Assembly: GCA_963820525.1 (NCBI GenBank)
Contig: CAWGAA010000001.1
Coordinates: 1,888,001-1,952,000, forward strand
Length of the DNA stretch: 64,000 bases
Origin: an uncultured Spirochaetota bacterium
Lineage (GTDB): Bacteria > Spirochaetota > Spirochaetia > SZUA-6 > Fen-1364
Direction of reading: 5' to 3'
Both the position numbers and the translations under genes were made by a program. How positions within the stretch are numbered: position 1 is the stretch's first letter; every line of letters begins with the position of its first letter. Positions 44,847 through 64,000 of the stretch are shown here, piece after piece. The notes below the pieces were generated by a model. It saw nothing but the letters and a program-made list of their open reading frames with translations, made no database searches and was not told the origin of the DNA.

Positions 44847-45005
44847 CTGTCATAGGCCTTCCCGAGGCGGTTTTCCAGAGTGCCGTCCCGGCGCGATCCT
44901 TTTGCCTGAGAGTTTGGCCCCCGCCGTCCCGGCGGACAAGGCCTTGCACCTTCGGCGGCCCCCGAAGGCTCGCTCCAGGGGCTCTCTCGCGCGCCGATCC
45001 TCCGG
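44846..45005 (-). ncRNA. Glycine riboswitch (one aptamer plus a downstream ghost aptamer)
   Basis: Minus strand GAGAG...CCGCCGAAGGTGCAA...AAACTCTCAGGCAAAAGGA, then a CTCTG...CAGAG stem, directly upstream of gcvT. Confidence 0.85.
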
Positions 45006-45135: not shown

Positions 45136-47502
45136 TCACTCCACCGTGATGAGGATCTCTTTTGTGCGTACGCCGGGACCGGGGATGACTGCCTGGATCC
45201 TGTGTCTTCCCCTGGAGAGCGGAAGCCGAAGCGCATAGGGGAAGGCGGCTTTGCCCAACAGCCCGCCGTCCACGTACCACGAGACCTCGCGTACCCGCGG
45301 CCGGACTTCGACCTGCAAAGGCAGGCTCTGGAACTTCTGCGGCGTGTCGGGGTCCATAAGGTAGCGGGCTCCGTCCTCGGGGTACGTGACGCGAAGCTCG
45401 AGTCGGCCGCCGAACGGAGAATCGTCGGCCGGAGAGCTGAAGCCGTGCTGGGCGCCCCAGAGGGCGTAGATGGGCGGAAGGATGGTGAAGGGACGCACCG
45501 CGACGCGGGATGGCGGGGTGGCATTGGTGGCCACGCTCCCGTCGCGGGCATCGACCACGAAGCGCTTGTGGACGGCGCAGAATGCGCGGGGTACTTCGGA
45601 GGGGCGGAACCATTCCACGGTGGTTGACGGGCAATCGGGGCCCGCCTCGTCGCCCGACATCGCGCAGACGGACACGGGAAGCGTTCCGTCGGGAGGGGGG
45701 AAGGGTACCGCGTCTATCCCCTCCTTCTGGAGGGGGTGGAGAAAGCGCACGATCTCTCCGGCATAGACGGCGGAAACCACGCCGGCCACGCGGTTCATGG
45801 GCCGGTTGTCGGGGTTTCCCATCCACAGCCCCACGATGTAGCGGGACGTGAAGGCCACGGTCCACGCGTCGCGGAAGCCCTGGCTGGTGCCCGTCTTGAT
45901 TGCCACGGGGAAGGGGAACTCCAGGGCGCTCATCCGGGGAAACGACGGAAGCCGGGCGATGTCGTCGGAGAGGAAGAGCGACACCTCGCGCGCGGCGTAC
46001 GGCGAGAAGACCTGGGCCTCGGTCCGGGACCCTCCGTCGGCCCGGAGCCAGCGTAGGGAGAACTCCCTGCCGTCGTTAGCCAGGGGCCCGTAGGCGGCCA
46101 CCAGGTCCGCCAGGGTGACGTAGATCCCGCCGATTGCCAGGCCATAGCCATAAAAAGATGCCGGCCTTCCCGCCCTCTCCAGCCCGAGGAGGCGGGCCAG
46201 ATCGGCGAAATCCTCCATGCCCACGCCCTCCAGGACCCTCAGGGCGGGAACGTTCCTGCTGTTTGCGAGCGCTCTCCTGTAGAGCATGGGGCCCAGGTAG
46301 GCCTCGTCGAAGTTCGCGGCGCGGTACTCGCCGCGGGAGCTCAAGACCGCGAACGGCAGGTCCGCCAGGATGGAGCCGGGGGTGAAGGTTCCCCTGTCGA
46401 GCCCTTCGGCGAAGAGGAAGGGCTTGAGGATGCTTCCCGAAGACCGCGGGGTATCGGCATAGTCGATAGCGCCGGAATGCTCCCGGTCGTAGAACGCGGA
46501 GGATCCGATATAGCCCAGCACTTCTCCCGTTCTGCGGTCCGCCACGATGATTGCGATGTTCTGGGCGTCCAACCGGCGGTTCTCGGCCAGGGCCCTCTCC
46601 GCCACGCCCTGGATGTAGTCCTGGATGACGGGGTCCATGCTCGCCCGAAGCGGCCGGGCGTACGCGCTCGGGCCGCCGGCCTTCACCTCTTGGAGAAGGC
46701 GCAGGATGTAATGGTAGCTGTTTCCCGGGCGGTCTTCGCGCTCGGGCAGGGGCATCGTTTCAAGCTGGCTCAACGCGGAACGGTACTCATCCTGCTCGAT
46801 CTGACCGCGGGAGAACAGCAGGCGAAGGATGAGGCGGGCCCGCCTCTTGGCCAGCTCGAGCCCCTGGTAATTGAAGACGTTCATCCTGCCGGGCTCCCGC
46901 GGAAGGCTTGCCAGGATGGCGGACTCTGCCAGGCTTGCGTCCAAGAGCGGCTTCCTGAAAAACCTGCGCGCCGCATAGGCGACCCCGTGGATCTGGTTTC
47001 CCTGGGGCACGATCTTCAGGTAATGGCGAAGCACCCGCTCGTGTCCGAACTTGGCGATCAGAAAGAAGGCCGTGCTCGCCTCCAGGACCTTTGCCGTCAT
47101 GGCCCGGGAGGCCGGATACTCCATGCGCGCCACCTGCATGGCAATGGTGGATGCGCCCTGGCGCCTGCCGCCTGCGGAGTTGTTGAGAATGGACCGGGCA
47201 ATCGAGCGGACGTCGACGCCGGGGTGAGCGTAGAAGCGGCGGTCCTCGATCGCGGTGAGGCAGAGGGCCATGCGCGGGTTGAGAGGGCCCTCGACGTCCC
47301 AATAGCCCAGGCTCCTGTACTGGTTTTCACCCTCGGTGAGGAAGTTGCCCGCGCGGTCCTCGATGATGGGCGTAGGCGGCGGAGAGAAGAGCTCGGCGCG
47401 CTGCCAGCCGATGGCAAGGAAAGCGCCCAGCAGGCTCACAAGCCACGTGGAGGCGAAAAAGGCGATTCTCCCGGCGCGCGCCTTTGAAAGCGAAAGCTTC
47501 AT
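45136..47502 (-). CDS. pbpC: Penicillin-binding protein 1C
   Basis: Transglycosylase EDRRFY and GASTIAMQ. Transpeptidase SILK, SRN and KTGT. C-terminal Ig-like BiPBP domain. ATGA overlap with the A2M stop. Confidence 0.9.
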   Translation of the reverse strand: MKLSLSKARAGRIAFFASTWLVSLLGAFLAIGWQRAELFSPPPTPIIEDRAGNFLTEGENQYRSLGYWDVEGPLNPRMALCLTAIEDRRFYAHPGVDVRSIARSILNNSAGGRRQGASTIAMQVARMEYPASRAMTAKVLEASTAFFLIAKFGHERVLRHYLKIVPQGNQIHGVAYAARRFFRKPLLDASLAESAILASLPREPGRMNVFNYQGLELAKRRARLILRLLFSRGQIEQDEYRSALSQLETMPLPEREDRPGNSYHYILRLLQEVKAGGPSAYARPLRASMDPVIQDYIQGVAERALAENRRLDAQNIAIIVADRRTGEVLGYIGSSAFYDREHSGAIDYADTPRSSGSILKPFLFAEGLDRGTFTPGSILADLPFAVLSSRGEYRAANFDEAYLGPMLYRRALANSRNVPALRVLEGVGMEDFADLARLLGLERAGRPASFYGYGLAIGGIYVTLADLVAAYGPLANDGREFSLRWLRADGGSRTEAQVFSPYAAREVSLFLSDDIARLPSFPRMSALEFPFPVAIKTGTSQGFRDAWTVAFTSRYIVGLWMGNPDNRPMNRVAGVVSAVYAGEIVRFLHPLQKEGIDAVPFPPPDGTLPVSVCAMSGDEAGPDCPSTTVEWFRPSEVPRAFCAVHKRFVVDARDGSVATNATPPSRVAVRPFTILPPIYALWGAQHGFSSPADDSPFGGRLELRVTYPEDGARYLMDPDTPQKFQSLPLQVEVRPRVREVSWYVDGGLLGKAAFPYALRLPLSRGRHRIQAVIPGPGVRTKEILITVE

Positions 47503-50500
47503 TTGCCGGCTTCAGGCAGTACCCTGACCTCCGTGCCGTCCGAGCGCCCCTGGACGGACAGCTTGTACATGAGCTCGGCCTTTGCCGAAGGCTCGGTGAA
47601 GGATCCGCTGAAGCTCGCCCGCACCCGGAAGTAGAAGTTGTAGGTGCCCTTGGGAAGGCTGTCGTAATAGAATACGACCTTGTCGTCGGCGTACAGCGAG
47701 TAGGTGGGCGCGAGGGTGAGGCTGCCGGACGGAGCGGCCTCCTTGGGCGCGCCGGCAAGCTGAGGGTTCAGCGGCTCGAACCCCGAGGAGATCGGGACCG
47801 AGACCGCCACGAAGTTCCTGTCCTCGAAGTTGACCACGGTCACGTGCTCTTCGACCACCGTGTCGAGGGGAAGCTCTATTGCCTTTCCCGCCGCGGCCCG
47901 CGTCTTGGATGCCGGATTCCCCTCGTTTCCAATGACGATAAGCTCGCGGTCCACGGAGAAGCCCGCGTTCTCCGCCTTGACCTGGGAGCCGCGCGCAGCC
48001 GGCACGTAGTCGGTGTACATGAGAAGGGAGAGCGGCCGGCCGGGGCTCGCGCCCTTTCGGACGTTCACCGTGGCCGGGCCGGTCACGTCCAGGGAGAACA
48101 CGGCAAGCGCCTTTCCGCCGGTTGAAAGCTGCCGCTTTCCCGAAGAGGAGGAAACTTCAAGGAGCGCGTCTTCGGATGCCGATGTCGTGAGCACCGTTTT
48201 CAAGGCGCGCATGGCGGAAACGTTGTCCTGAGTGTTTCCCCAGCCTTGATCGTCGGATTGCGATACAAGGTAGTCGGTGAGGAGCCTCAGCTTTGGAGAC
48301 CTCGGGTCCATCCTGTACAGCGCATCGATGCACGCGCCCACGTCCCGAACGGGGCTCGCAAGCACGATCCCGCCCCACCAGGAGCGCTGATCCGTCTGGA
48401 ACCCGGCAAAGATCTCGCGGCCCGCCTCGCGCTTCGTCACGACGGCGGACTTGAGCCGGTCTGCAAGCTGGACGGCATTGCGGGTGGAGGCGAGGCGCCT
48501 GCGTTGAAGGACCGAGTACAGCCTCGCCTGGCTGTAGAGGGGCAGGCCCTGGGAGCTTGCCAGAAGCTCGTTCGCGTACGCCTGGTCGAAGCCGCCCGCC
48601 GCGTCAAGCGCGCACAGTGCCTCGACCCGCTCGTAGCTGGTCCATCCGGAAAGGAGCCTTCTGTAATCGGATCGGAGCGCGGCCCGGAGGGCCGAAGACG
48701 CCTTGTCCATCATCCGCGCGTCAAAGGGGATCTTTGCGTCCCGGCACGCCACGAGGAACTCCACGGCGTAGGCAGTGAGGCTCACGTAGCCGGTGGAGCC
48801 CGGCCAGTAGCCGAAAAGCCCATCCTCGTCCTGGCACGACGCCAAGTAGGCGAAGAGGTTCCTCATCGCCATTTCGTTCACGGGGTAGTATTGGGGAATG
48901 CCCGAGGATTCCAGCAGGTCCTTGAGCATAACGGCGGGATAGAGCTTTGACACACGCTGCTCGAGACATCCGTGAACGTACCCCGTGAGGTAGTTCAGCC
49001 CTTCCAGGATTGAAAGGAGGCGCGGATCTCTGGCCGCTATTATAGTGCGAGACACGGTGCCTGAGCGGACGGGCTCTTTTGGATCCGGAAGGGAGACGGG
49101 CTTGGAGCCGTCCGTGGTCTGAATGGCCGCGATGTGCCGGGAATCCACGTCGTTTCGCACGGGAAGCTCGATCCTGAAGGCGTCGCGCGCCTTATCCGAG
49201 TTTCTCTGCACGTAGAGGCTCACCGCGACGTTTGATCCCTCCTTTTCCTGGAGGGTATCGGGAACGCGCATGGGGAAGAGCAGCCGCTCCGCCTTCCTGC
49301 CGTTGAAGGTGAGCTCCCGGACGGCCTGCGCGGGTCCTTCCCGTCGAGCGTGAGGCCCTCCACTTTGATTCCGGCCAGTCCCGGCCCATCGGGTCCCTCC
49401 ACAACCCTGCCGATTCCGCCGGCGTTGAAGGAGTCCCGGGGCCGCACGAATCGCGGCAGGGCCGACTGGGCGATCACGGGCAGGCGGACAGACACCATGG
49501 AGCGGGCCGCTCCCAGCCTGTCGTAGCCCGAGGTTGCCACGGCGCGGATGGCGAAATCGGTGAGATTGTCGGGCAGGCTCACCTCGATCTCGGCGCTTCC
49601 GCCCTTGATCGCGATCGAGGGATTGAAATAGGGCACTGTCTTGAAGTTCTTCCGCACCGTGACGCGGTCGAAAAGCTCCCTTGCCATCTCTGCGCTCATC
49701 ATCCCGTCGCCGCCGGGGATCTCCTCGATGGGGAGGTTTCCGAAGGTGAGGTTTCGGGTATCGCGGATGCTGATGAAGCTCTTCTGCGCCTCGATGAAGG
49801 GCGAAAGCGGGTCCAGCGGAAGCTCGGTGCCCAGCGCGAGGACCGCCTTGTCAACCAGCCACAGGGCAGCTTCTCCGTCAACCGGATTTCCCTTCCAATC
49901 GGATGCCGAGATGCGGATCTTCAGAGTCGTTCCCGGCTGCCGCTTGGGCTCGTGCTCCAGCGCCACGGTGAGCTGGTTTGCGGCGGGTTGGACCGCCAGG
50001 CGGATGGAGGCGCCCAGGGTCGCGGGCTTGCCAAGATCCAGCTTTTCGGCCGCCTTGCCCGTGCCCGCCACGCGCCCACGCTCCAGGAGCACGCCGATGG
50101 GCAGGCTCGGCGCCATGTTGTCCTGGATGGCAATCGAATAGATCCCCTGCCCGCCTGAAATCTTCACCCAATCGAAGCGGTTGGACTCCGGGCCTTCGAC
50201 GACGACCAGGGCATACCCTTCCTGGTACGGGCTCTTGAGGAGCAGCTTCGCGGTCATACCAGGCTGGTAGCTTCTCTTGTCCGGGGTGATCTCGAAGATG
50301 CTCTCCTTCTTCTTCTCCCAGCTCACGGGAGTGCCGCCGGCAACGAAGAGGTCGGACTTCACCAGGAGCTGCCGGCCCATGTAATCCCTCGCGAACGCCT
50401 CAACGATATAGACCCCCGCTTCGCTCACGCTGAAGGAGGGGCTCACCGTATCCGTTGTTGAAACGATGGACTGCTCGCCCATCGGCGTATCCACCACGTC

Positions 50501-53230
50501 GGTGACGTAGCGCGCCTCCCCGGTGGTGAAATCCGTCTCCGCGATGTAGGAGTGCCACTGACGCTGTGACAGTCTCACCGTGACCTGCTTGCCCGCCAGG
50601 GGCTGTTCCGCGTGATCCAGAACCACGATCTGGGGCTTGATGACCTTGCTGTCCGTGAGGAAGCGGTCCACCTTGAGGCCGATGCTGAAGGGTGGAAGCG
50701 CGAAGACCTGCTTCACCGTGGTCACGCTCTGGCGGTCCGCGCCCAGGACGGTTGCCCGCGCCACGTAGCGGCCGGCGCGTCCGTCCCTCTCCGCGGCAGG
50801 ATTCACCTGGATCCTGGAGGATCCCTCGTCGTCCAGCGTGTCGCTCTTTCGAAGCGCCCCGGTGACGCCTGACGGCTCTCCCGAGGAGAACCGTTCGTCC
50901 GTGGAAAAGAGGAAGCCGGGATACGAGGGGCTGGAGATCGAGTAGGGGTAGCGCGTCACTTCCCAGTCCACCTGCTCTCCAACCACCCGTCCCCCCGAGT
51001 AGTAGTCAGCCGTGAGGGTGAGCACGAAGGGCCGGTCCAGCGGCACCTTTTCCGGGCCGGAGATGTTCGCCTCGAAGAGCGGGACGCGGTAGCTCTCCTT
51101 CCTGAACCTCACCGAGGCGAGGACCGTCTGGTCCTTCGCGTACCTGACGGAGGCGCCGTATTCGCCGGTGGGAAGATCCTTGTCCTGGAACTGCGCTGAA
51201 AACCTCCCGTTTCCCGCCAGCTCCGCTGGATACACCCATTCCCTGTCCCCCGGCCCGCGCACCGCCACTTCCAGCTTGCGGGAGCCCGCATACTTGAGGA
51301 TCCTGCCGTCCATCCTGTCCCTGACCCAGCCCACGATGTACACGAGATCCTCGGGCCGGTAGACGGGTCTCTCCGTCACGATATAGGCCTTGGTTGCTCT
51401 CTCGTGGCGCTGCTCCCGCGGGGCCGCCGTGAGCCAGGCGAGCCATGACGAGCTTCCCTGGGACCAATGGTTGTCGGCAAATGCGGGAGGCGGGTCTTGA
51501 GGGTTCAGCACCAGGATATCGGCGTCCTTTGACACGACGATCCGCGACGGTGAAAAGTTGAACCGCCTTGAATGCTGGTAGCGCAGCTGCCCGGAGGCGT
51601 CGGTCACGCCCGAGAACAGGGGGGCCATTCTGTCCGCGTTCCTCGCTTCCACGCGTACCGCGGCTCCGCTCACCGCCGCTCCCGTGAAGAGCGAGGTGAC
51701 GACGAAGACCACCGCGTTCTCTTCCTCTATGGTGCTCAAGCAGAGGTCCGTGACCGCCAGCCGCGCGTAGAACCTGGTGCTGCTGCTGTCCAGGCTCCGA
51801 TAGCCCACAAGGTACGTCCCGGGGCTCGCCTTCCCATACTTGGCGGCCAGCTCCCCCGCAAGGTCGATGCCGAACGCGCTTCGCCCGCTGTGCTCGCTTA
51901 TGGGAAGATCGAGGATCTTGGAGATATCGGGCGAGCCGAGGAGGCGGACCTGCTTGATGAGCTCGCGCCCATACTCGGGCTCCTCACCCGGCATCGGGGG
52001 GCGCGATTCCTCGTCGATGGAGATGGGCTGGCCGGGAAACGGCCAGAAGTTGAGGCTCTCCGGGTCTATCCTGTAGACGCGAAGGTCCACCCGCCCCATG
52101 CCCCTGCCCTCCATGGGGAGGAACTGGGGCCCGAAGCGCTCCGCGATTCCCTGGGCAGTCTTCCACACGAGGTACGGCTTGGACTGCTTGTAGTAGAAGT
52201 AGAACGATGCCCTGTCGAACGCGGAGAGCGCCCTTCCGCTGATGCTCCTGATCTCCTGATAGCCCGCCGTGATCCTGTACGCCTTGTCCCTCTCCGCCTC
52301 GAACCTCAGATACAGCCTCTGGCCGGAGACCTCGCAGACGAGGTTTCTCACCGCCGGCTCGAAGCTCACCAGCCGCTTGAGGGCCTCCACTCCGACGGGA
52401 GCGATGTCCTCGGAAAACTCCAGGAACAGGGGCTCGCTTCCCGTGCCGCAGTTCACGGCCTGGTCTATCGGATACGCGGCGCCGGAGGGCGTCACGGGAA
52501 ACCGTGCGCTTCCCGAGCCCATGCCGATAAGCCTGAACTCGGGCCGGGTCTGGAAGGTGTACTTCGCCACGGAATCGCGCAGGGACTCGTCGAGGGAGAG
52601 CTTGAGATAGAGGATGGCGTGCTTTCCATAGGGGATTTCATTCTTCAGCGTCACCAGGTAGGAGGCGCTCGTGGCCGTCTTGGAGCGCTCCAGCTGCCGG
52701 ACCGTGAAGTCGGCGTCCGACATCCACCAGGAGCCTTCCGTCGTGAGGCCGGGAAGCTGGCGAACCTCGAAGCGGATCATGCGTGCAAGGCTGTCGGTAT
52801 CAAGGACCGCCGGAAACGAAAGGGTGAAGGAGCGGATTGGCTCCAGGCCCATGCTCCCCGATGACGGGGAGACGGAGGAGGGAGGCACCATCATCGTCGA
52901 GAGCTTCGCGCTCCTGTCCTTTGCCTGGATGGTGAAGACCTTCAAGGCCGGCCAGGGCACGGCTGGAAGGAACTGGACTGTGCGCGGGTCCAGCCACCTG
53001 TATTCCCCGGCAAGGGCGGGGAGGACGCTCAAGTACCCGCCGGGACCGTCCGCCGGTCCGCCGCGGGCCGGGCCGACCTGCCTGTTGTAGAAGACCGTGA
53101 CCGGATCATAGCCGCGGAGAAAGCCGTCGGGAACGATCGTGGATCCCAGGGCGGAGTCATCGGCCCGGAGGCCGGCGGCGCAGGCCAGGAGGACCATGGA
53201 AATAACGACGATGGTGCGACTGCTCAACAT
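47499..53230 (-). pseudogene. Bacterial alpha-2-macroglobulin (YfhM-like, about 1910 aa) split by a 1-nt deletion near 49330-49340 (possibly an assembly error)
   Basis: ERPVYRP, VDKAVLAL, RKNF, LPDNLT and LPRFVRP in the 5' ORF. Thioester GCLEQ (48971-48957), FGYWPG, WGNTQDN and PSAKAELMY in the 3' ORF. Confidence 0.9.
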
Positions 53231-53242
53231 GACGGGCCTACC

Positions 53243-56200
53243 TCATTCTTCCCTGTAGGACTTTATGACGTCGTCGGGGGTCTCGGTTCGGCTGCCCGAC
53301 AGGCCGTAGACGACGGGCGCGAAGCGCCGCGTCTCCCCCTTCGCTTCCACCAGGAGGTAATACAACCCAGGAGCAAGCTTCCTGATGAAAAGGGTCCCCT
53401 CGCCTATGGGCTTGAAGCGGGCGTCGAACAGCGCGGCGGAAAGGCCGTCGCTTTCGGCCCTGATTCCGGCGCCGATCTTTCCCGCCGCCTTCACCTCGAA
53501 GCGGTACAGGGCAAGCTCTCCCGGACCGAGGAGGGCGGGCGCGCCCTCCCCTTCCACGGCGACGGTGGTCGGCGCGAGGAGCGCGAGGCGCAGCGACCCT
53601 CCCTGGCCCGCTCCCCGGAAGGGCCGCGTGAACGCCATATAGGAGCCCTTGGGAAGCGAGGAGATTACGGTCCTGCCGCCAAGGCCCGCGGCCAGGCCGA
53701 GAAGCGCGCCGCTCCTGTCGTAGAGCGCCGTCACTCCGTCGGCATCGGAGCGCAGACACGCGATGGCGTCCTGGTCCAGGGAGAAGGTCCAGGATTGGGC
53801 CGCCTGCCCCAGCGTGACTCCCTCCACGGACAATGCCGATCCGGGCGCCCACGAATCCTTTGAAGCGAATGACGAGCGAAGATCCTCCGGCTTGGAGATC
53901 CACGCCTTGAGCGCTCCATGAGCGGTGGAGATCTCCAGCCGTCCTTTGCCGCCGGGAAACACCAGCACGGGGCCGAGATCGGTGCCCACTGATTGACCTG
54001 AGGTGATGCGGCCGTCGGCCTCGCTCAGGTACCGCGCATCTCCATGATCGCCCCAGAGGAAGAGGCGGGACTTCGGGTCGGCGGACACGGAGAAGGAGAG
54101 GTCCCGCTCGCCGGCAAGCACTGCCTCGAAGCCCTGCGCCTCGGTAAGGTCGGTCTGGGAGGCCGCCGCGCCCGACACGATGGAGCAGAGGGCGGGAGCG
54201 CTCGAATCGTTGACCACGACGATGGACCCTCCCTGGACTTCCATGATCCCGCTTGTGCTCGCTTCGGGGGCATCCACCACGCCGGCAGGCCTGCCGTTCC
54301 AGCCAAATGCCGTCATGCCTCGCTCCAGGGAGACGGAGAGCGCCTGGCGGGCGCCGTCCAGGGCAACAGCGGCCGCGGAGCCGGAAGGCACGCTTACGGT
54401 GAGCCTGCCGCTCTTGCCCAGTACGGTCTCGGAGACCACAGGGAAGAACCGGGCCGACACGGCGCGCCGCCGATCTTCCTGCCCGGAGCCGCAGTCCCAG
54501 AGCCTTCCGCGGAAGGAGCCGTCTCGAAGCCCGATCACGGTGGCAAGCTTGGTGACTCCGGCGCCTCGCCAGTCGAACGTGTCTGCTTTGTATGATCCGG
54601 CGGGAGAAGCCGAGAGGCCGATCTCCTGCCCCGCGTTGTCCGTGCGGATCAGCGCCGCCGTTCGCGGAGGAACCTGAACGCTGAAGACCTGGGGAACGCT
54701 GCCCACCACAACGGCGCCGGCCGTTCCGTCTCTGAGGGCGAGCGGGGAGATCTTCACACCTCCGACGGGGGAGCCGTCGGCGTGAAGGACCCAGCCCGTG
54801 GCCCCGGATGTGTTGACCGCCGCCTCGGTAAGAGGCCTGAAGGGGAGATTGAGGCCCGGCGAGTAGAGGAGCCTCCCCGCGGCGGGGGTGACGGTGAAGC
54901 TCGAGCCGTCCCGGTTTTCCAGCTGGACAACGGTTTCATTCACCGTCTGTGAGATTTCGCCGCCGCCAAGCGAGATCACCGCGGGACGCTCGGCGGTTAA
55001 ATGGAAGGCGACCTGCTTCTCTCCGACGCCGGAATGCCAGAAGCTCACCGAATAGTTCTCCCCCTGAGAAAGGGGAAGGAAAAGCGGGGCGGCGCCGGAA
55101 GCGATCACGCGCCCGCCGCGGCTTATGGATACCGAGATCGGCTCATCCGAGGCTGCCCAGAAGCGGTGCACTCCCGCGGTTTTCGCCGTGAAGGCCGCCG
55201 CTCCCACCTCGGTTGAAAGGTCCACCGTCACATCAAGCGTTCCGCCCGCCGATGAGAGGGCGCGTGTGTCGCGGGAGATGAGCGTTATCATGGGAGATCC
55301 GGCGGGCGCAGGCCCCAGCTCGGGAACCGCCTCGCTTCCGCCCCGGTCCTGGGCGCGGTACTCCCCGCCGCCCTCATCCTCGGAGACCGCGCCTTGATCG
55401 CTTCCTTGCTCGTCTCCGCCATCCTGGTACTCGCCCTCGCCATTGTCGTAGGCGCCCTGGTCTTCGGATTCGGAGTACTCGCCTTCCGACTGCGAGTCAG
55501 AATGCCTATCTTCCTCCGCGACGGGTTGGCCCCTCGAAGAGGAAGCTGAAGCGTCTTCCGCGGAGGACAGCGCCAGGGTGTATCTGCCCGCCTTGACGTT
55601 GGCCACGATCCTGAAGTTCCAGTCGTCGGGAATCTCCTCGGCTGTTGCCACGATTCTTCCCGATTGGTCCACCAGGACGGCCTGCATCTCCTGGGAGCCA
55701 TAGCTCCAGATGTCGATGTTCCCGTCCTTGCCCACCGTGACGGGGATGCTCGCCGGAAGCGAGCCCGGGGTTCGAGGCCCGCCCTCGTAGAGGTCCGCCG
55801 TGGCCACGGCAATGCTGTAGTTCTTGAGGTTGTCCTCCTCGATGCTGGACACCTGGATCCGGCAGGTTCCCGCGGGGAGCATGGCCTCGGAGTGCTCGCC
55901 GCCTCGGCCGTGATCCAGCACCTGGCCCTTCTCGTCGAGCACCCTGAAAAGCATTCCCTGAGAAATGTACAGGATTGCGTCGATGCTGGAGGGCAGGCTC
56001 AGGGTAAAGACGTCTTCGGGGCGGCCCTGGCTCTCGGTCCAGATCTTGCGGTAGGTGCGGTTGAGCCGGATGGAGAGGAGCTTGGCCTTTGGATCGTACG
56101 GGGCTTGATCCTGGCCCGCCCGCGCCGTCAGGGAGAGAAGGCGCCGGGTGGGAACGGGATCCATGGCCGACACGTAATGGTAGGTTCCGACGGGAAGTCT

Positions 56201-58675
56201 CCGGGCAAGCGTGCCGTTTCCAATGGGACTTCCCAGCGGCCAGGCGTCCGCGTCCTCGAACCTCCAGACGAATGAGCGTCCGAGGCCCAGGCACTCCAGG
56301 GAATAATCGGTTTCGCGGTCCACGCGCACGTCGGCCTTCAAGACGGAGCCGGCGGGCACGGTCTTTCTGAGGATGACCCCTTCGGAGAGCGTTCCCGCGA
56401 GGATGGTGCCGACGCGCTCGAGCGTCATTCCGGCCCGCCCCCTTGACGCGCCCTGCGCGCTCACGCGCACCATGTAGGCTCCCGGCCTGAGGTACGCCGT
56501 GACAACCGCGTTTCTGCCGTCCGCGTTCTGGGAAGCCGAGAAGAGGTCCGGCTTGAGGATGGTTCTGATGCCGATGCCCATGGCAAGCCGCCCCGCTGTG
56601 GCGATCCTGTACGGGCCCGGCTGCACCACCTTGAGGAGGAAGGTCGCGCTCTCGCCGCGCTCGAAGCTTTTCCACACGGCAACCCCTTCCGTGAAGGAGG
56701 GAAAGAGGGTTTCAAGCTCCGCCTTTTTCGGCTTCTCCAGGCCGGATGTCCGCTCCCGGGGGACCGCGGAGATCACGTGCCACGCTTCCTGGCCCGTCGG
56801 GTTGGAGAGAACAAGCTGGTGGCGGCCCGGCAGGACGGCTCCATCCGCCTTCCACGGGGAGCCGTCGATGCGGGCCGTCTGGCCGGAAAAAGTGGGGTTG
56901 ATCGAGGAGACCAGCTGTTCCGCGTCGTTCACGAATGGAAGGGTCATGCTGGCCCCGGCCTCAAGCCTGACGCACACGGGCTCCCTCAAGTCCAGGGGGA
57001 GGCGCCTCACGGTGACGCCCTGGGGGACCCTGCCGCGGGAGGCGATGATAAGCCACGTGGAGTCAGAGCCGGAGAGAACCGGGATTGAAGACCAGCTCAG
57101 GCCATTGACGGGCCGGGGAGGCTCTGCGGCGAGAAGCCTTGCCGAGTCTCCTCCGCCGACGATCGTCGTCGGCATGATGACGAAATCCAGAACGCCGCTT
57201 TTCACGGGAGAAATGGTGAGGATGTAGAGCTTGTCCTGGAGCCTGATCCTGCCGCCGCCGGCCACCTCGACGGGAGTCGCCCGTCCCCTTCCGGCAATCA
57301 TGTCGTCCATCAGCGTGAAGGCATATTTGGCGCCCACTGCTTTGGAATCCTTCTCCACCACCGCATAGAAACCGGCCTGCTCCACCCTGACGGCGAGGGA
57401 AACCGAGAAGAGGCTGTTCAAGCGGCGCCGGATGGGATGATTGGCGCCAAGGCTGGGAACCTGGATGCCCTTTGGCTCCAGCAGAACGCCTTTGTCGCGA
57501 TGAGTGCTGTCGACCACGAGCCCGCTCACGTCAATGGACTCCTCGCCTTCAGCCGCCCCGAGAACCGTGGCCAGGTAGTCCCGCGAATCCCTGTCGTAGC
57601 GCAGGGCCAGGCTGTCGAAGGGGTAGTTTCCGGAAAGAGTGGGGAACCAGCGGATCTCCACGGACTCTCCCGGCGGGCCCTGGAGAGTGAGCCACTGGGT
57701 CCGGTCGGAGACGCCCCCCGAAGCCGTCGCGCGGTAGGAGGATGACTTCTCATTGATCTCCGCCCGCGAGCTGGAGTCGAACCTGCTCGCTCCCGGGCTG
57801 TTTGCGGAGATGGCCATGCGATAGACCTTGTTGTTGCGGGATTCCATCTGGAAGAACCGGGCATTCCCCGAGACGAGGTAGCTCGCCAGGCCGCTCTCGC
57901 CAAAGGTGACGCTCATGACGCCCATCTCTCCGAGGTAGCGCCCCCCGCGGGTCATGGAAAACCTGTCCTTCCCCGTCTCCTTGGGCCATGACCTGCGCGG
58001 ACCGCCTGCAAACGTCACGAGGTAGAGCCCCGGGTCCATCCTCACGTTGAACTCGAGGCTCATCATGGGCATGCCCTTCTCGGGCTCGAACTCGCGCATC
58101 AGGGGACGAATGCCGGTATCCCACGCACCGTCGCGCCATACGACGGCGTCGGTGAGGTTCCTTCCGTGGGCCTCCAGCAGGAGCACGGGGTCCGACTCGT
58201 CTATCCTGACCCACCAGGAGAGAAGCTCGAAGTCGTGAAGCTCGCCCGAGACGCTCTGGATCTTCGCGAGCTCCGGCACGTCGAAGTCTTCCCTGCCCGC
58301 ATTTGCCACGGAGAATGCGCGCGCCGAAAGGGTGACGGCCTGCCCCTGGGGCTTTCCGATGCGGATCTTGTATTCGCCGGGCTCCAGGAACGAGTCGATG
58401 CGGCCCGCAACCGCATCCATGCCGGATGCCCGGCCATTGGTTGCCATGCTGCCGGCCATCCGGTCCACCAGCTCGAGGCTCGCCCCGAGCTTGCCCTGGG
58501 AGACGATGGCGTAGCGGCCCACCGTGGGCACGCGAAGAATCGTCTCCGCAGAAGCGCCGGGACCGGAGAAGAGGCTTGAATCGAGGGAAGGCGGAGCCGC
58601 CGCGAAGAGCGGAAAAGCCGTCAGAGCCAGGACAAACGCGGCCGCAATAGCGTTGGGGCGCGGACGTCGGATCAT
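53243..58675 (-). CDS. Uncharacterised 1810-aa secreted multi-beta-sandwich protein (PPC-like modules)
   Basis: Signal peptide ending FPLFA. Recurrent GxY-hydrophobic strands and an acidic internal linker. Ends 12 nt before the A2M start. Confidence 0.8.
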   Translation of the reverse strand: MIRRPRPNAIAAAFVLALTAFPLFAAAPPSLDSSLFSGPGASAETILRVPTVGRYAIVSQGKLGASLELVDRMAGSMATNGRASGMDAVAGRIDSFLEPGEYKIRIGKPQGQAVTLSARAFSVANAGREDFDVPELAKIQSVSGELHDFELLSWWVRIDESDPVLLLEAHGRNLTDAVVWRDGAWDTGIRPLMREFEPEKGMPMMSLEFNVRMDPGLYLVTFAGGPRRSWPKETGKDRFSMTRGGRYLGEMGVMSVTFGESGLASYLVSGNARFFQMESRNNKVYRMAISANSPGASRFDSSSRAEINEKSSSYRATASGGVSDRTQWLTLQGPPGESVEIRWFPTLSGNYPFDSLALRYDRDSRDYLATVLGAAEGEESIDVSGLVVDSTHRDKGVLLEPKGIQVPSLGANHPIRRRLNSLFSVSLAVRVEQAGFYAVVEKDSKAVGAKYAFTLMDDMIAGRGRATPVEVAGGGRIRLQDKLYILTISPVKSGVLDFVIMPTTIVGGGDSARLLAAEPPRPVNGLSWSSIPVLSGSDSTWLIIASRGRVPQGVTVRRLPLDLREPVCVRLEAGASMTLPFVNDAEQLVSSINPTFSGQTARIDGSPWKADGAVLPGRHQLVLSNPTGQEAWHVISAVPRERTSGLEKPKKAELETLFPSFTEGVAVWKSFERGESATFLLKVVQPGPYRIATAGRLAMGIGIRTILKPDLFSASQNADGRNAVVTAYLRPGAYMVRVSAQGASRGRAGMTLERVGTILAGTLSEGVILRKTVPAGSVLKADVRVDRETDYSLECLGLGRSFVWRFEDADAWPLGSPIGNGTLARRLPVGTYHYVSAMDPVPTRRLLSLTARAGQDQAPYDPKAKLLSIRLNRTYRKIWTESQGRPEDVFTLSLPSSIDAILYISQGMLFRVLDEKGQVLDHGRGGEHSEAMLPAGTCRIQVSSIEEDNLKNYSIAVATADLYEGGPRTPGSLPASIPVTVGKDGNIDIWSYGSQEMQAVLVDQSGRIVATAEEIPDDWNFRIVANVKAGRYTLALSSAEDASASSSRGQPVAEEDRHSDSQSEGEYSESEDQGAYDNGEGEYQDGGDEQGSDQGAVSEDEGGGEYRAQDRGGSEAVPELGPAPAGSPMITLISRDTRALSSAGGTLDVTVDLSTEVGAAAFTAKTAGVHRFWAASDEPISVSISRGGRVIASGAAPLFLPLSQGENYSVSFWHSGVGEKQVAFHLTAERPAVISLGGGEISQTVNETVVQLENRDGSSFTVTPAAGRLLYSPGLNLPFRPLTEAAVNTSGATGWVLHADGSPVGGVKISPLALRDGTAGAVVVGSVPQVFSVQVPPRTAALIRTDNAGQEIGLSASPAGSYKADTFDWRGAGVTKLATVIGLRDGSFRGRLWDCGSGQEDRRRAVSARFFPVVSETVLGKSGRLTVSVPSGSAAAVALDGARQALSVSLERGMTAFGWNGRPAGVVDAPEASTSGIMEVQGGSIVVVNDSSAPALCSIVSGAAASQTDLTEAQGFEAVLAGERDLSFSVSADPKSRLFLWGDHGDARYLSEADGRITSGQSVGTDLGPVLVFPGGKGRLEISTAHGALKAWISKPEDLRSSFASKDSWAPGSALSVEGVTLGQAAQSWTFSLDQDAIACLRSDADGVTALYDRSGALLGLAAGLGGRTVISSLPKGSYMAFTRPFRGAGQGGSLRLALLAPTTVAVEGEGAPALLGPGELALYRFEVKAAGKIGAGIRAESDGLSAALFDARFKPIGEGTLFIRKLAPGLYYLLVEAKGETRRFAPVVYGLSGSRTETPDDVIKSYREE

Positions 58676-58708
58676 GGTTCGACCTCGTTATGGATGCGTG
58701 ATACATCG

Positions 58709-58737
58709 ATTATACGCCCCAAAACGAGGTTTGTCAG
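58709..58737 (-). promoter_or_regulatory. Sigma70 promoter of the giant protein-A2M-pbpC operon
   Basis: Minus strand CTGACA-17 nt-TATAAT, with a GAGGT RBS before ATG 58675. Confidence 0.65.
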
Positions 58738-58782: not shown

Positions 58783-60093
58783 CTAGAAGCCGACTTCCAC
58801 CGTGAGCTGGATGCTGCCAAGCGTTCCAGCGCTTCCCGTGCGCAGGGAGCCGAACTCGGTGCTCTCCGGCCCCAGGTACCAGGTGGCATCCAGGTTGATG
58901 GTGCAGTTCTCCACGTAGGAGCTTCCCAGCCCGGCCCTGAGGAGGGTGCTTCCATCCATCGGATTGACGAGCACGGTGGCCTGAGCCGAGAGCGAATCCG
59001 TGAAGGCGGAGACCCTGGTTGTAAGATTGGGCTGGGTGACGGAGAAGGCAAGGTTGTGCCTGTAGGCGGAGCCGCGATCGAAGAGGGGGGGATAGCCGGG
59101 AGCAGGCGGCGCCGGCAGGCTTTCAAGGCCGTCCTGCTGGTAGAGGTACTCGGCGACGATGTAGGTGTCCGTCACCGGGGCCTGCAGGCGCAGGCCGCCA
59201 AGGGCGCCGGTGGCCCATCCGTTCCATGCGGGATCCAGCTTGGAGTGCTCCCTGGCGGCGAACTCTCCGTGGAAGCTCAGGCCCGAGAGGATGGGTACTC
59301 CGGAGAAGATGTTGGCGTCGAACGAGCCGCCGGTGTTGAAGCCCTCGGGATCCGCGTAGAAGAATACGAGGTTGAGATCCACCCCGGGGATCAGCGCCGA
59401 GGTGGCGAGCTTGGCCGCGTAGCCCGTGGAGGAAAGCTTGTCATAGATGATTGCGGCCTGCTCGAAGGAGAACGCGGAGAGGTAGAGGCCGAGGTGCGCG
59501 CTCCACACGCCCTGACGCTGCTCTTCCGGCTGCGTGGGGTCCTTGGGAGGGTTGATGAAATCGGTCGGGTTGTGGAAGAAGCCGGTCCCCCATGCCATCC
59601 TGCGCTTTCCAGCCAGGAAGACGAGAGACTGGGACAGATCCGCCCGAAGCCATGCCTCGTTCAGCCAGCCGTCCAGGTTTTCGAGCAGGGTCGAATCGAG
59701 AGAGCTCGACAGCCCCGTCAAACCGCCCTCCGCGTCCAGGTGTGCCCGCGCCGCCTTGGAGGGGGCAAGCTCGACAACGCTTCGAATCCACAGCCGGTTT
59801 CCGGCCATGAGGGCGGCCGATGTGTCTGCGGGAAGTTGAGAGGAAAGCTCGTCGCGGATCCAGCCGGAGAACACGACGGACTGTTCGGTCGGGGGGACGG
59901 GCGCCTCCTGGAGGGCGGGCTCCTGTGCCGGGGTATCCGGCGCCGCCGCTTCCGCGGCCTCACTCGGTGCCGCCTGTTCCGCGGCCGGCTCGGCGGCCTC
60001 CTCGGCAGAGAGCGTGCCCGCGGCGCACAGCGCCAGCGTTATCGCCAGGATGAATACCGCAAAGCCGCGCGCGGCACCTGCTTGAGATTGCAT
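58783..60093 (-). CDS. Putative outer-membrane beta-barrel of the LolA-like/ABC cassette
   Basis: Signal peptide, Ala/Glu/Pro linker, LNEAW..GKRRMAWGTG..NPTD motif and terminal ...LTVEVGF. Confidence 0.7.
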   Translation of the reverse strand: MQSQAGAARGFAVFILAITLALCAAGTLSAEEAAEPAAEQAAPSEAAEAAAPDTPAQEPALQEAPVPPTEQSVVFSGWIRDELSSQLPADTSAALMAGNRLWIRSVVELAPSKAARAHLDAEGGLTGLSSSLDSTLLENLDGWLNEAWLRADLSQSLVFLAGKRRMAWGTGFFHNPTDFINPPKDPTQPEEQRQGVWSAHLGLYLSAFSFEQAAIIYDKLSSTGYAAKLATSALIPGVDLNLVFFYADPEGFNTGGSFDANIFSGVPILSGLSFHGEFAAREHSKLDPAWNGWATGALGGLRLQAPVTDTYIVAEYLYQQDGLESLPAPPAPGYPPLFDRGSAYRHNLAFSVTQPNLTTRVSAFTDSLSAQATVLVNPMDGSTLLRAGLGSSYVENCTINLDATWYLGPESTEFGSLRTGSAGTLGSIQLTVEVGF

Positions 60094-61478
60094 TATGCCA
60101 CGGCCTCTGCCGCCTTGCGGGCTCCACCGGCCTCCCTGGCCAGCCTGCGCCGGCGCCGTTCGGCCATGAGCTCGCGCAGCGGGGAGATCTTCTTGAAGCG
60201 CTTGACAAGGGTGTCGGTAATGGGCTGGAAGTTGAGCCTGAGGGCAGGGCCCACCGTGGCAAAGATCGAGAAGACTAGGATCACGATGAAGCCGCTCGCC
60301 ACGTCCATTATTTTGAACTCGGGCCAGAAGCTCTCATTTCCCAGGGCGTAGCTCATCGGCCCGCCGCCCACGTAGATGCCCGTCGTCCCGAAGACTACGA
60401 CGTATGCTATTCCAATGGCCAGCGCCACGGCAAACGCCATCATGGTGAGGAAGAAGACCTCGCTGAAGATCACGACGTAGCAGCTCCACCTGCCGAAGCC
60501 CATGGCGCGCATGGTGCCGAACTCCCGCATCCGCTCGAAGAGGTTCATCCGAAGCGACGATCGCAGCCCCAGCGCGATGATGATCATCATCACGTAGACG
60601 AACATGGCAGACATGCTCTTCATTCCCTGGGCGTTTCTGGGGTAGAACACGGACGCGCTGTACCACCAGTCGCTTCCCAGGGGAAGCCCCGCATCCTTGA
60701 GCTGGCCATCGAGCTTTTCTGAAATCCGCTTTGCGGCTTGCGGGTTCTTGAGGAAGATCATGCAGACGTCGAAGAACGACTGGTCAGCGTCAAGCAGCAT
60801 GCGCGCATCGCGGTCCGACATGAATGCGTACCACGCGTCGTAGCCTGCCCGGTTCTTGTAGATCCCGCGCACGGTGAAGTCCAGAAGGTTCGCGGCCCCG
60901 TACACGCTCTTGATGGAGAGGCTCACCGTGTCTCCAACGGAAAGCTTCAGCTTCCTGGCGGTATCCTCACTCACCGTGATAGCGCCCGGCTCGTCGATCT
61001 CCAGCTTCCCGGCCTTCAGCTCTATGGTCTTGGTGGCCAGAAGGTGATCGCGGTGCTCGGGGGTGAGGTTGTACGTGCAGACTTGGTGCGTCACCCTGCC
61101 CTTGGTGATGTTTCCGAAGCGGGTGATCCTGCGGTCTATGTACGCGATCTCGTCTCCCACGGCGGAGAGCATGACGTCCAGGGCGGGGAGGGCCGCGACG
61201 CGCGCGGCACGTTCCTTCTGGTCGGGAAGCTCGGTCAAGAAATACTTGGCCGGATCGCTCATTTTCTTTCCCTTCAGCTCGGGCCCCACCACGTTGACCT
61301 CTCCGCTTTGAAGGTTGATGTAGCCCTTGATAACCTGGGTCTCCACGCCGTTCATGGTGAAATCGCTCAGGAAGAGCACGAGGGTGGAGATGAAAATGGT
61401 GGAGCCCACCAGGAGGGACCGTTTCCTGTTCTGTATGACGTTCCTGATCGCGATGCGCAACATCGGTCTCACAGACAT
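60093..61478 (-). CDS. FtsX/MacB/LolC-E-type ABC permease
   Basis: IAIRNV...RSLL, a large periplasmic loop, ERMREFGTMRAMG and three C-terminal TMs. Confidence 0.85.
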   Translation of the reverse strand: MSVRPMLRIAIRNVIQNRKRSLLVGSTIFISTLVLFLSDFTMNGVETQVIKGYINLQSGEVNVVGPELKGKKMSDPAKYFLTELPDQKERAARVAALPALDVMLSAVGDEIAYIDRRITRFGNITKGRVTHQVCTYNLTPEHRDHLLATKTIELKAGKLEIDEPGAITVSEDTARKLKLSVGDTVSLSIKSVYGAANLLDFTVRGIYKNRAGYDAWYAFMSDRDARMLLDADQSFFDVCMIFLKNPQAAKRISEKLDGQLKDAGLPLGSDWWYSASVFYPRNAQGMKSMSAMFVYVMMIIIALGLRSSLRMNLFERMREFGTMRAMGFGRWSCYVVIFSEVFFLTMMAFAVALAIGIAYVVVFGTTGIYVGGGPMSYALGNESFWPEFKIMDVASGFIVILVFSIFATVGPALRLNFQPITDTLVKRFKKISPLRELMAERRRRRLAREAGGARKAAEAVA

Positions 61479-61485
61479 TCTCCTT

Positions 61486-62751
61486 TCACCATTCCCGCAG
61501 GGTGTCGGCCGGCCTCTCCCGAGACGCCCGCAGGGACGGGTACAGGGAGGCGAGGAACGCGAAGGCGGGAACGAAGACGATGATCGGCAGCGCGCAATCC
61601 GGGTTGAAGAGGAAGCGGAACTCGCTGCCCGTGGAATAGCTCATGGGGGGCGTGACGGTGAAGGTGATGCCGGAGAGCCACTTTACCAGCCCCAGGGCCG
61701 CGCCGGTGCCGAGCGCTCCGAAGAAAATCGAGATGATGAAGATCTCCACAACGAAGAGCCCCACGATCCGGCCCCGGGAGAATCCAATGGCGCGCATCGT
61801 GCCGATCTCCTGGCGCCGCTCCAGGCCCATCATGAAGATGATGTTCATGGTGACGATGCCGGCGATCACCATGATGATGACGATGAAGAACGTGTTGGTG
61901 ATCCCATAGATGGATTGGGCGGCGGTGATGAAGCTGCCCATCTTGTCGTAGGTGGTGGTCTTCAGGCGGTCCGCCTGGGGAAGCGCCGCATCGAGGGCCG
62001 GGCCCAGGAGGCGGGCCACGGCGGCCGTCTGGCGCTTGTCTTGGAGGTACAGGACGGCGTCCGTGGCGCCTCCATCGATTCCGAGGAGCTCCCGGGCCGC
62101 GGCAAGGTCTATGTAGGGTGAATCGAAATTGAAGCCGTACTTCCACGTCATGCCGGGATCTCCGACTCCGACCACGGTGAGACCCACGTCGGCCGAATAG
62201 CCATCCTGGCTCTGGCCCATGAGGCCGAGGGTGTCCCCCACTTTGGCGTTGAGATTAGTAGCTATGGCGGTGGGCAGGACAATGCAATGGTCATCCCCCG
62301 GCTGGAGCATGCGCCCGGAGGTAAGCCTGAAGCTTTCACCGACAAACCTGTCCGAAGTATCCGTGGCCAGGAGAAGCGCCCCGGTGGTTTCCGTGTCCGA
62401 TACCAGCATCCCCGTGGCGCGGATCCGCGGCACGAGGACCGCGCCGGGCACGCGCCGGGAGACGAGGTCCTGGACGGTTTTCAGTGTTTGCGCCGAGATG
62501 AGGTACTTCCCCGCCCCTTCCCAGGGGTTTTCCACGGAGAGCATGTCCTTTTCGGGATTGGAAGCGGGCCTGAATTGGACGTGTCCCGTGGCGCTGGAGA
62601 TGACAAGATCCTGCATTCCCTCACGCACCGTGAACGAGAAGGCATTGGACATCACGATCATGAAGGCGATTGCCAGCACGAAGATTCCCAGGGTGAGAGC
62701 GCGGGCCTTATTGTGGAAGATGTTCTTCATGCACAGGCCGAAGATGCTCAT
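61486..62751 (-). CDS. FtsX/MacB/LolC-E-type ABC permease
   Basis: KNIFHNKAR, a periplasmic loop, ERRQEIGTMRAIG and ASLYPSLRAS. Confidence 0.85.
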   Translation of the reverse strand: MSIFGLCMKNIFHNKARALTLGIFVLAIAFMIVMSNAFSFTVREGMQDLVISSATGHVQFRPASNPEKDMLSVENPWEGAGKYLISAQTLKTVQDLVSRRVPGAVLVPRIRATGMLVSDTETTGALLLATDTSDRFVGESFRLTSGRMLQPGDDHCIVLPTAIATNLNAKVGDTLGLMGQSQDGYSADVGLTVVGVGDPGMTWKYGFNFDSPYIDLAAARELLGIDGGATDAVLYLQDKRQTAAVARLLGPALDAALPQADRLKTTTYDKMGSFITAAQSIYGITNTFFIVIIMVIAGIVTMNIIFMMGLERRQEIGTMRAIGFSRGRIVGLFVVEIFIISIFFGALGTGAALGLVKWLSGITFTVTPPMSYSTGSEFRFLFNPDCALPIIVFVPAFAFLASLYPSLRASRERPADTLREW

Positions 62752-63434
62752 CGCCGCTCCTCCCCAGTCAGGGCGCCGTCCTCCAGCCTGAGCACCCTGT
62801 CGGCCTTCCCGATGATCTTGGGGTCGTGGGAGGAAAAGACGAACGTTGTCCCTTCCTCGCGGTTGATGGCATGCATCAGCTCCACGATCTCGATGCCCGT
62901 CTTGGAGTCGAGGTTGGCAGTGGGCTCGTCCGCGAGCACGATGGCGGGCTTGGTTACCAGGGCGCGGGCAACGGCCACGCGCTGTCTCTGCCCTCCCGAA
63001 AGCTCGGAGGGCTTCTGCTTTTCCTGGTCCTCCAGGCCCACCTCATTCATGAAGTGCCTGACCCTCTCGCGCCTCTCCTTCAGGCTCACCTCGGGTACGA
63101 TGAGCAGCGGAAGCTCGATGTTCTCGTACACGTTGAGCACGGGGATCAGGTTGAAGGACTGGAAGATGAAGCCGATGGTGTAGAGCCTGAGGCGGTTGAG
63201 CTCGCGCTCGCTGAGGGTTGAAACGGCCTTGCCGGCCACCTCCACCTCGCCTTCCGTGGGGTGGTCCAGACAGCCGATCAGGTTGAGCAGCGTGGATTTC
63301 CCCGAGCCGGAGGCACCTGCGATGGTGACGAACTCCCCCTTCTCGACGTCCAGGGTCACCCCTTTGAGGGCGTGCACAACGGTCTTTTCCAGGTGATAAT
63401 CCTTGATAACCTTCTTGAGTCTCACTGTCGACAT
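62748..63434 (-). CDS. LolD/MacB-type ABC ATPase
   Basis: GASGSGKST, IGFIFQSFNL, LSGGQRQRVAVARAL and ADEPTANLD. Confidence 0.92.
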   Translation of the reverse strand: MSTVRLKKVIKDYHLEKTVVHALKGVTLDVEKGEFVTIAGASGSGKSTLLNLIGCLDHPTEGEVEVAGKAVSTLSERELNRLRLYTIGFIFQSFNLIPVLNVYENIELPLLIVPEVSLKERRERVRHFMNEVGLEDQEKQKPSELSGGQRQRVAVARALVTKPAIVLADEPTANLDSKTGIEIVELMHAINREEGTTFVFSSHDPKIIGKADRVLRLEDGALTGEERR

Positions 63435-63547
63435 GATCTTTTTCCCTTTCCTTTATATGGGCGCCCGCCATGGTCCACGGATGGACGTACAGCGGCGCGG
63501 CCATGGATGGCCGGGCGCCGCGCCAGCGGCGGGCGGCGCCTGGTCTT

Positions 63548-64000
63548 TTATCTCAGCAATCCCTGCTGCACGTATGACGGCGTGAAAATCTGATCCCCGA
63601 GTGAAAGCCCTTCCTTCACGCTTTCCACGGAGATCTCGGATTTGTATTCGGGGTTCTCCTCGTTCACGATTGACATCAGGCTCGGCCTGGCGCGCGAGCC
63701 GAGCTTTCGAATCTCGCCGAACGTCATGGTCCTGAGCTTTCGGCCGGACAGCGCAAAGTACTCGCGCTTGATGGGCATGCTTGTCTTCTTGTCTATCCAG
63801 CAGACGATCTTGTCATAGGAGATGGAGCGGTCCTTTGCCTTGAGCTCGATCTTCCACGCGGCGCGGCCGTTCGCCTCTTCGGTTGTCGCCGAGATGACGG
63901 TATAGTCGCGGGCCAGGTCTACACGCATGATGTCGGCGTTGGACGCCTCCCCGCCCATGCTCGTATCCTTGGTTCCGATGCGGGTGATCTTCTTGGACCT
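63548..64000 (-). CDS. Outer-membrane lipoprotein-sorting (LolA-like/TP0789-type) protein, 5'-truncated by window edge
   Basis: Frame open to the window end (RSKKITRIGTKDTSMGGEASNADI...). YDKIVCWIDK, EYFALSGRKLRT and IFTPSY motifs. Confidence 0.8.
   Translation of the reverse strand, partial: RSKKITRIGTKDTSMGGEASNADIMRVDLARDYTVISATTEEANGRAAWKIELKAKDRSISYDKIVCWIDKKTSMPIKREYFALSGRKLRTMTFGEIRKLGSRARPSLMSIVNEENPEYKSEISVESVKEGLSLGDQIFTPSYVQQGLLR

Follow-up and report, generated by a model that had tools for sequence, protein, structure and literature searches.

A giant, predicted exported protein that accompanies one clade of bacterial alpha-2-macroglobulins, from the genome of an uncultured Spirochaetota bacterium

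Positions 45136 to 58737 of the window, a 64,000-nucleotide stretch of DNA from an uncultured Spirochaetota bacterium that was analysed as a whole, carry three consecutive genes on the minus strand. The source genome comprises 5.05 Mb in 4 contigs, and the best sequence-read matches to the window come from wetland and freshwater-sediment metagenomes, with no RNA data set among those listed. The first gene (53243..58675) encodes a protein of 1810 aa, hereafter the giant, with a predicted Sec signal peptide at about residues 1-25. It is followed by an alpha-2-macroglobulin (A2M) gene (47499..53230) belonging to a long, distinct clade (~1,950 aa) with the Pfam domains bMG3, MG2, A2M_BRD, A2M, bMG10 and a weak TED, and by a gene (45136..47502) for a PBP1C-like protein of 788 aa with transglycosylase, transpeptidase and BiPBP_C domains. 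This order had been described in an earlier, sequence-only reading of the window, and the signals listed there were recovered along with it: a sigma-70-like promoter site, CTGACA-17-TATAAT (58737 to 58709, minus strand, 11/12 matches), 34 nt before the giant ATG; a 12-nt gap between the giant and A2M genes (53231..53242, minus strand), where the RBS-like GAGGTAGG overlaps the giant stop and precedes the A2M ATG; an ATGA overlap of the A2M and PBP1C genes (47502 to 47499, minus strand); and the thioester motif GCLEQ (48957..48971, minus strand). The giant gene itself has an RBS-like GAGG (58683..58686, minus strand) 7 nt before its ATG. Three promoter-like sites were found against 1.2 +/- 1.2 in shuffles, a count that is not significant alone, and a terminator scan returned 9 against 11 expected, no signal above expectation.

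The A2M gene is not one open reading frame in the assembled window, a point missed in the earlier reading. A -1 shift near 49331 divides it into an upstream part of 1336 aa (49220-53230), which ends off-frame, and a downstream part of 590 aa (47499-49271), which contains GCLEQ. When eight public runs were compared, all five that covered the break carried one extra base there (4/4 in the first set and 1/4 in the second, the other three being without coverage), so the split is a one-base assembly error, and a pseudogene or a programmed frameshift is ruled out by the same reads. One contig with the extra base is otherwise identical to the window over 1,113 bases; the best-matching run may be the assembly's own sample, in which case it is the most direct check and not an independent one. 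The natural gene is intact and encodes about 1,910 aa. Its closest intact named relative has 1,912 aa, and the median among 75 full A2M ORFs of the clade is 1,953 aa.

Residues 25-490 of the A2M (51761..53158, minus strand) form clade-specific, well conserved N-terminal domains. Further features were counted in 74 relatives, which are the 75 full ORFs minus two wrong-frame ORFs plus locus L013. CxEQ is kept in 70 of them and the thioester Cys is lost in four; this Cys is also absent from 3/3 Rhizobium plasmid A2Ms examined, where the giant is retained, and covalent trapping is thus not essential to the giant-A2M pairing. A candidate bait region lies at 49658..49717 (minus strand), judged by its position after the Pfam A2M_BRD match, and the corresponding segment of the clade is variable and Gly/acidic-rich, with a median of 18 aa between conserved anchors. 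By pattern search only, a lipobox occurs in 1/74 relatives, and the window copy has a possible one, VLLAC at Cys17, that may or may not be used. A PDB sequence search with an intact relative gave no match at E 0.001, and the first A2M domain weakly resembles the Ig-like domains of L,D-transpeptidases (E 0.002). The PBP1C-like protein has the transglycosylase motif EDRRFYAHPG (E86) and the transpeptidase motifs SxxK (357), SxN (415) and KTG (536), and it scores 454.5 bits against TIGR02073, below the cut-off of 494.2.

These properties bear on a reading in which the giant and the A2M build a large structural envelope assembly, the A2M being not mainly a protease trap and its thioester optional. 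The pair persists whether or not the thioester Cys or PBP1C is there, which would suit such an assembly, as would the distance of this A2M from the solved ones and the L,D-transpeptidase likeness of its first domain. However, most relatives keep CxEQ, the clade has a variable bait-like segment, and in the accessible part of the MagD study the Cys-free MagD still traps protease (PMC5764988). We regard a mainly structural role as improbable.

The giant, called unknown in the earlier reading, maps to no characterised family: no family was assigned by Pfam or NCBIfam, no relative was found among PDB sequences at E 0.001, and there was no match in a phage collection. No enzyme domain was found with Pfam and NCBIfam, and BLAST detected no internal repeats. 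Its own family is large. Homologues numbered 22 in one search, 317 genome and 196 metagenome stretches were confirmed by one-motif scans, and a set clustered at 50% identity gave 869 representatives with E values no higher than 1e-30, a figure that counts fragments as well. The closest named relative of the window giant comes from an uncultured Spirochaetota bin. Homologues are about 1,700-1,900 aa long, with length and domain order fixed and no variation in repeat number. The window giant has a predicted signal peptide and neither a lipobox nor an inner transmembrane segment. Among the 147 full-length homologues that start with Met (out of 171 proteins), crude hydropathy finds a hydrophobic N-terminus in 126, a lipobox-like motif occurs in one, and an inner hydrophobic window above 2.0 in four.

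AlphaFold2 models of the two halves of the giant, built on 104-row alignments, are nearly all-beta. Residues 26-1045 (55541..58600, minus strand; pLDDT 92.7, pTM 0.84) are modelled as about ten packed beta-sandwich domains, several of them PPC/collagen-binding-like, and residues 1128-1810 (53246..55294, minus strand; pLDDT 94.2, pTM 0.87) as about seven, the last PPC-like and followed by a terminal helix. The strand pattern of the models thus suggests about 16-17 beta-sandwich domains in all. Between the halves lies an acidic low-complexity linker (55271..55558, minus strand) whose 96 aa are peculiar to the window copy, since the family median is 14 aa and the linker exceeds 60 aa in 4/105. 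The invariant motifs GxNGxGRN, RLEDxxGWP, WxE and DWN all fall within residues 650-1045, and a PPxxVxxxY helix is conserved at the C-terminus.

In fold searches run mainly on residues 656-960, 1421-1502 and 1616-1793, the other domains being barely sampled, single giant domains matched the PPC/collagen-binding domains 5sv5, 1nqd and 3jqw, with the periplasmic g-type lysozyme inhibitor PliG (4dzg) and GOLD domains nearly tied. For 5sv5 the values were Z 12.5 and rmsd 2.4 over 96 aligned residues in the N-terminal half and Z 12.3 and rmsd 1.9 over 94 in the C-terminal half; for PliG they were Z 11.8 and rmsd 2.2 over 94, and Z 10.3 and rmsd 2.9 over 96. The likeness to PPC domains and PliG is therefore one of single-domain fold (Z ~10-12.5, rmsd 1.8-2.9 over ~95 residues) at 9-21% identity. 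Weak PPC matches in Pfam were obtained for 2/22 homologues. Foldseek found no match for the whole protein and listed multi-domain beta proteins at low TM-scores, the best to the query being 0.17. In contrast to the M9/S8 proteases that carry PPC domains, the giant showed no protease domain in Pfam or NCBIfam, and its domains keep a fixed arrangement.

The fold matches raise the question of whether the giant serves chiefly in recognition or as a decoy, binding wall-degrading enzymes or proteases and either inhibiting them or passing them to the trap. Besides the PliG fold, an N-terminal LprI domain is present in 10/156 giant proteins and 12/104 loci, acidic tails longer than 25 aa occur in 27/105 homologues, and collagenases use their PPC domains to bind protein substrates (PMC6168687). 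The Type I A2M model, as given in the accessible text of PMC5764988, has lysozyme damage mended by PBP1C. However, collagen-binding, PPC and GOLD domains scored as well as PliG or better, with identities of 12-21%, and the PliG match therefore shows no more than a shared jelly-roll fold. About 90% of the family, the window giant included, has no LprI domain, and ScwA, a protein with LprI, has no role involving lysozyme in the accessible part of PMC7933661. A role of this kind would also not explain why the giant is tied exclusively to a single A2M clade, unless it binds the A2M as well. On balance we consider a mainly recognition or decoy function unlikely. The same low likelihood applies to a stronger version, a complement-like defence machine of two subunits. 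In it the giant would recognise patterns, its 16-17 PPC/CUB-like domains capturing incoming proteases and wall hydrolases and handing them to a docked thioester A2M for covalent tagging, while PBP1C would repair the wall and the unit would spread horizontally across a dozen phyla. No result separates the scaffold, decoy and recognition roles of the giant.

Gene order was compared in the best 80 of the 317 genome stretches and the best 80 of the 196 metagenome stretches, two sets that partly overlap. An A2M lies directly downstream of the giant in 71 of the genome loci (eight reach a contig edge and one has none) and in 61 of the metagenome loci (16 at a contig edge, three with room but none), that is, in 132 of the 136 evaluable loci. 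In the genome locus without a downstream A2M (L016) the giant is truncated, and the A2M clade was not found in that genome as assembled. The genome loci come from 12 named phyla, some possibly mis-binned, and the giant stop and A2M start overlap by 4 nt in 30/75 relatives. The expectation that giant homologues sit 5' of an A2M-pbpC pair thus holds for the A2M and in part for PBP1C: among 96 loci with a full A2M, six of them at a contig edge, PBP1C is next in 79 of the 90 that could be evaluated and missing in 11. The core unit is therefore the giant plus the A2M, not three equal genes. No gene recurs upstream of the giant beyond close kin in the 160 loci, and an ABC/LolA-like cluster located upstream in the window was rejected as part of the module, as it is not conserved among relatives. 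An apparent giant-A2M fusion (a 3,717-aa frame in genome G711) was likewise set aside; the C-terminal part of the giant lies in another frame there, and the junction is off-frame.

The pairing was then followed in both directions with a profile of the N-terminal 596 residues of the window-type A2M, whose best match is at least 497 bits in each clade genome and at most 35 bits elsewhere in a 201-genome sample. Giant and A2M clade occur in identical genomes in each of three samples: 17/17 among 201, 14/14 among 191 and 4/4 among 401, the giant being sought in the last with a single protein query. Altogether, 35 of 793 whole genomes have both, although 3 of the 35 had been chosen as search centres because they carry the giant, and some of the genomes had contributed to the profiles. 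The two genes are adjacent in 32/35; contig ends break the pair in two, and in one (G702) they are unlinked and both kept. Another 28 genomes of the 201-genome sample have weak clade-profile matches only, presumably to other A2M types (two of them, G580 and G584, are unpublished), and no strong giant match. Among 72,556 plasmids the same seven Rhizobium records match both giant and A2M queries, and the three examined show the order giant, MG2-domain protein, transglycosylase. Cultured symbiotic strains with the module include Rhizobium sp. CIAT894 (RHEC894_RS31465-31475) and R. acidisoli FH23 (CO657_RS28460-28450), whose copies lack the thioester Cys, whereas Dongia sedimenti R-7 (L023) has a CxEQ copy. 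A second, lipoprotein-type A2M-PBP1C pair in the window's own genome, with a lipobox-like LLVISC and CIEQ, has no giant. The module is patchy, being present in 0/12 same-family genomes and 2/8 further same-order genomes.

FastTree trees of 104 giant-A2M pairs have 49/101 splits in common. Of 54 well-supported giant splits, 42 recur in the A2M tree and eight conflict with it, and pairwise identities of the two proteins are correlated (r = 0.92). Such congruence shows co-inheritance, not contact; operon inheritance alone explains both it and the synteny, and binding is not required for either. Beta-sandwich domains in tandem are a typical feature of adhesins. The giant could accordingly be a secreted surface or adhesion protein in its own right, inherited and regulated together with A2M-PBP1C and making no contact with it. 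Its array suits this role, a few giants lie apart from an A2M, and the patchy distribution and plasmid carriage indicate that the block moves as a unit. However, a hitch-hiker would be expected to be lost from the A2M clade, and no such loss was seen in the 35 genomes and seven plasmids, while PBP1C was lost in the 11 loci noted above; the constant length and domain order of the giant, and the modelling of both its halves as packed units, also speak against an adhesin. We therefore hold an independent adhesin to be quite unlikely.

Direct contact was addressed in two ways. Covariation between giant and A2M (104 pairs, Neff 78) peaked at z 6.8 between the chains, below the 7.6 reached inside the giant. 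The leading pair, giant R721 with A2M E416, varies mostly in one clade and is no evidence of contact. Complex prediction of giant residues 650-1045 plus 1695-1810 with A2M residues 25-490 scored 0.35 against 0.00 for the best control, the three-chain job itself lying outside the calibration. In that calibration the pass mark is reached by 116/157 solved complexes and 2/215 mismatches, but just 18/157 complexes, and both of these mismatches, pass with a score of 0.60 or less. Runs agree in at least 80% of contacts with a partner pLDDT of at least 75, and no interface was obtained; swapping out giant residues 650-1045 lowers the score to 0.00. The prediction weakly backs binding of the giant to the A2M N-terminus. 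Because the two proteins co-occur across many phyla, the giant is likely a dedicated binding partner of the A2M, in a form of envelope defence for which no description was found. The reading that we lean towards, with somewhat better than even confidence, is that it is a non-enzymatic exported partner that would bind one A2M clade through the A2M N-terminal domains and would stabilise and position it.

Bacterial A2Ms have been divided into Type I, with a thioester, a lipobox and PBP1C, and Type II, with no thioester and a six-gene partner operon (accessible parts of PMC5764988 and PMC3735191). The module shares with the Type I A2M-PBP1C pairs (E. coli ECAM/YfhM-PbpC, Salmonella Sa-A2M) the CxEQ motif, a bait-like region, the MG/BRD/TED/MG10 domains and the position of the A2M gene directly before PBP1C, with the ATGA overlap here and in 79/90 relatives PBP1C next in line. 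It differs from Type I in the ~1,950-aa A2M clade with its own N-terminal domains, in the scarcity of lipobox patterns (1/74 relatives and the VLLAC of the window copy, by regular expression), and in the giant partner that all 35 genomes and seven plasmids with the clade possess, unlike a two-gene unit. The Type II MagD of Pseudomonas, with MagA/B/F, is a lipobox-less A2M that depends on operon-encoded partners; most copies of the present clade likewise have no lipobox pattern, and a comparable dependence here is suggested by the co-occurrence. In contrast to the five smaller partner genes of Type II, there is one giant partner in a three-gene block, CxEQ is usually kept and PBP1C is usually adjacent. 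We take E. coli yfa to be the equivalent of the Pseudomonas mag operon, and DUF2135 presumably marks the Mag/Yfa partner proteins; it was found in the E. coli control and not in the window's genome, and the giant has no Pfam link to Mag/Yfa families. Nor does it have a transmembrane helix like that of MagB; lacking this and a lipobox, it cannot anchor as MagB does. With the lysozyme inhibitor PliG the window giant shares fold likeness only, and it has no LprI domain. In the available sections of two papers, both the stability of lipobox-less MagD and its association with the membrane depend on its operon partners (PMC5764988, PMC3735191), and the best reading by analogy is that the giant would work like these Mag partners without membership in the Mag system.

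Under our preferred reading of the giant as a binding partner, it and the A2M, for which signal peptides are predicted, would be exported to the periplasm and co-expressed 1:1. The giant would bind the A2M N-terminal domains directly, and the resulting complex would keep a likely protease trap, in most copies without a lipid anchor, stable and in position. The A2M may trap proteases as Type I A2Ms do, by bait cleavage and thioester attack, and PBP1C would act as a looser repair partner. The giant plus A2M would make up a third architecture in addition to Types I and II, as the clade mixes the two: it combines a thioester with PBP1C, for the most part lacks a lipid anchor, and has one obligate giant partner. 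No description of a giant partner was found in the literature as far as it was accessible; the 2004 survey of bacterial A2Ms is represented there through papers that cite it and may mention the gene. The macroglobulins in the accessible part of PMC4653623 belong to another type, the PAN-domain A2Ms. The giant represents a large family that is modelled with confidence and to which no function is assigned. Free-living bacteria of soil and sediment commonly carry the clade, which makes it unlikely that host proteases are the sole threat that it answers. Finally, the plasmid copies in cultured, symbiotic Rhizobium make both the trap-and-repair idea and the partner role of the giant directly testable.

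The 3' limit of the module formed by the giant, A2M and PBP1C-like genes is marked by a glycine riboswitch element on the minus strand, comprising an aptamer (44884-45001; Rfam RF00504, 56.6 bits) and a terminator-like hairpin (44848-44811). The element lies immediately 3' of pbpC and 5' of a glycine-cleavage cluster of gcvT/H/P-like ORFs, which were named from sequence.

On the 5' side, the giant gene is adjoined by minus-strand genes (58783-64000) for a LolA-like protein, an ABC ATPase and two FtsX/MacB permeases, together with one for a 436-aa protein that matches no family and has two paralogues in the genome. This upstream cluster is not conserved next to other giants. A search of the window for a T-tailed terminator ahead of the giant's promoter found none, and transcription from the upstream cluster could therefore possibly run into the giant gene.

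The same genome carries a second A2M with PBP1C (L012, contig C1, about 1600400-1608400). No giant accompanies this pair, which lies 3' of a pyrB-like gene. This A2M has a lipobox-like LLVISC and the thioester motif CIEQ. Within the giant-linked A2M clade, the thioester cysteine has been lost and the giant kept at the Rhizobium plasmid loci L198-L200, as well as at L057, L073, L091, L153 and L173. A tandem pair of A2M-like genes at L176 (G630:C178) is of another type than this clade.

Several relatives have unusual giant loci. At L175 (G702:C17) the giant and its A2M are unlinked, and part of the giant's C-terminal half is repeated in a 540-aa duplicate that lies 3' of it. Inserted DNA separates intact giant and A2M genes at L033, L171 and L110 (12492-13082); in L110 it holds an ORF called transposase-like on the strength of its sequence. 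The mid linker of the L021 giant carries a 188-aa insert, presumably akin to an OmpA-type peptidoglycan-binding domain as judged by a look at its sequence; this candidate likeness, if genuine, would suggest wall tethering. Close to the window start are genes for an RCC1-repeat protein and a FlgD-Ig-domain protein (2714-4717 and 1-1251, both plus strand).
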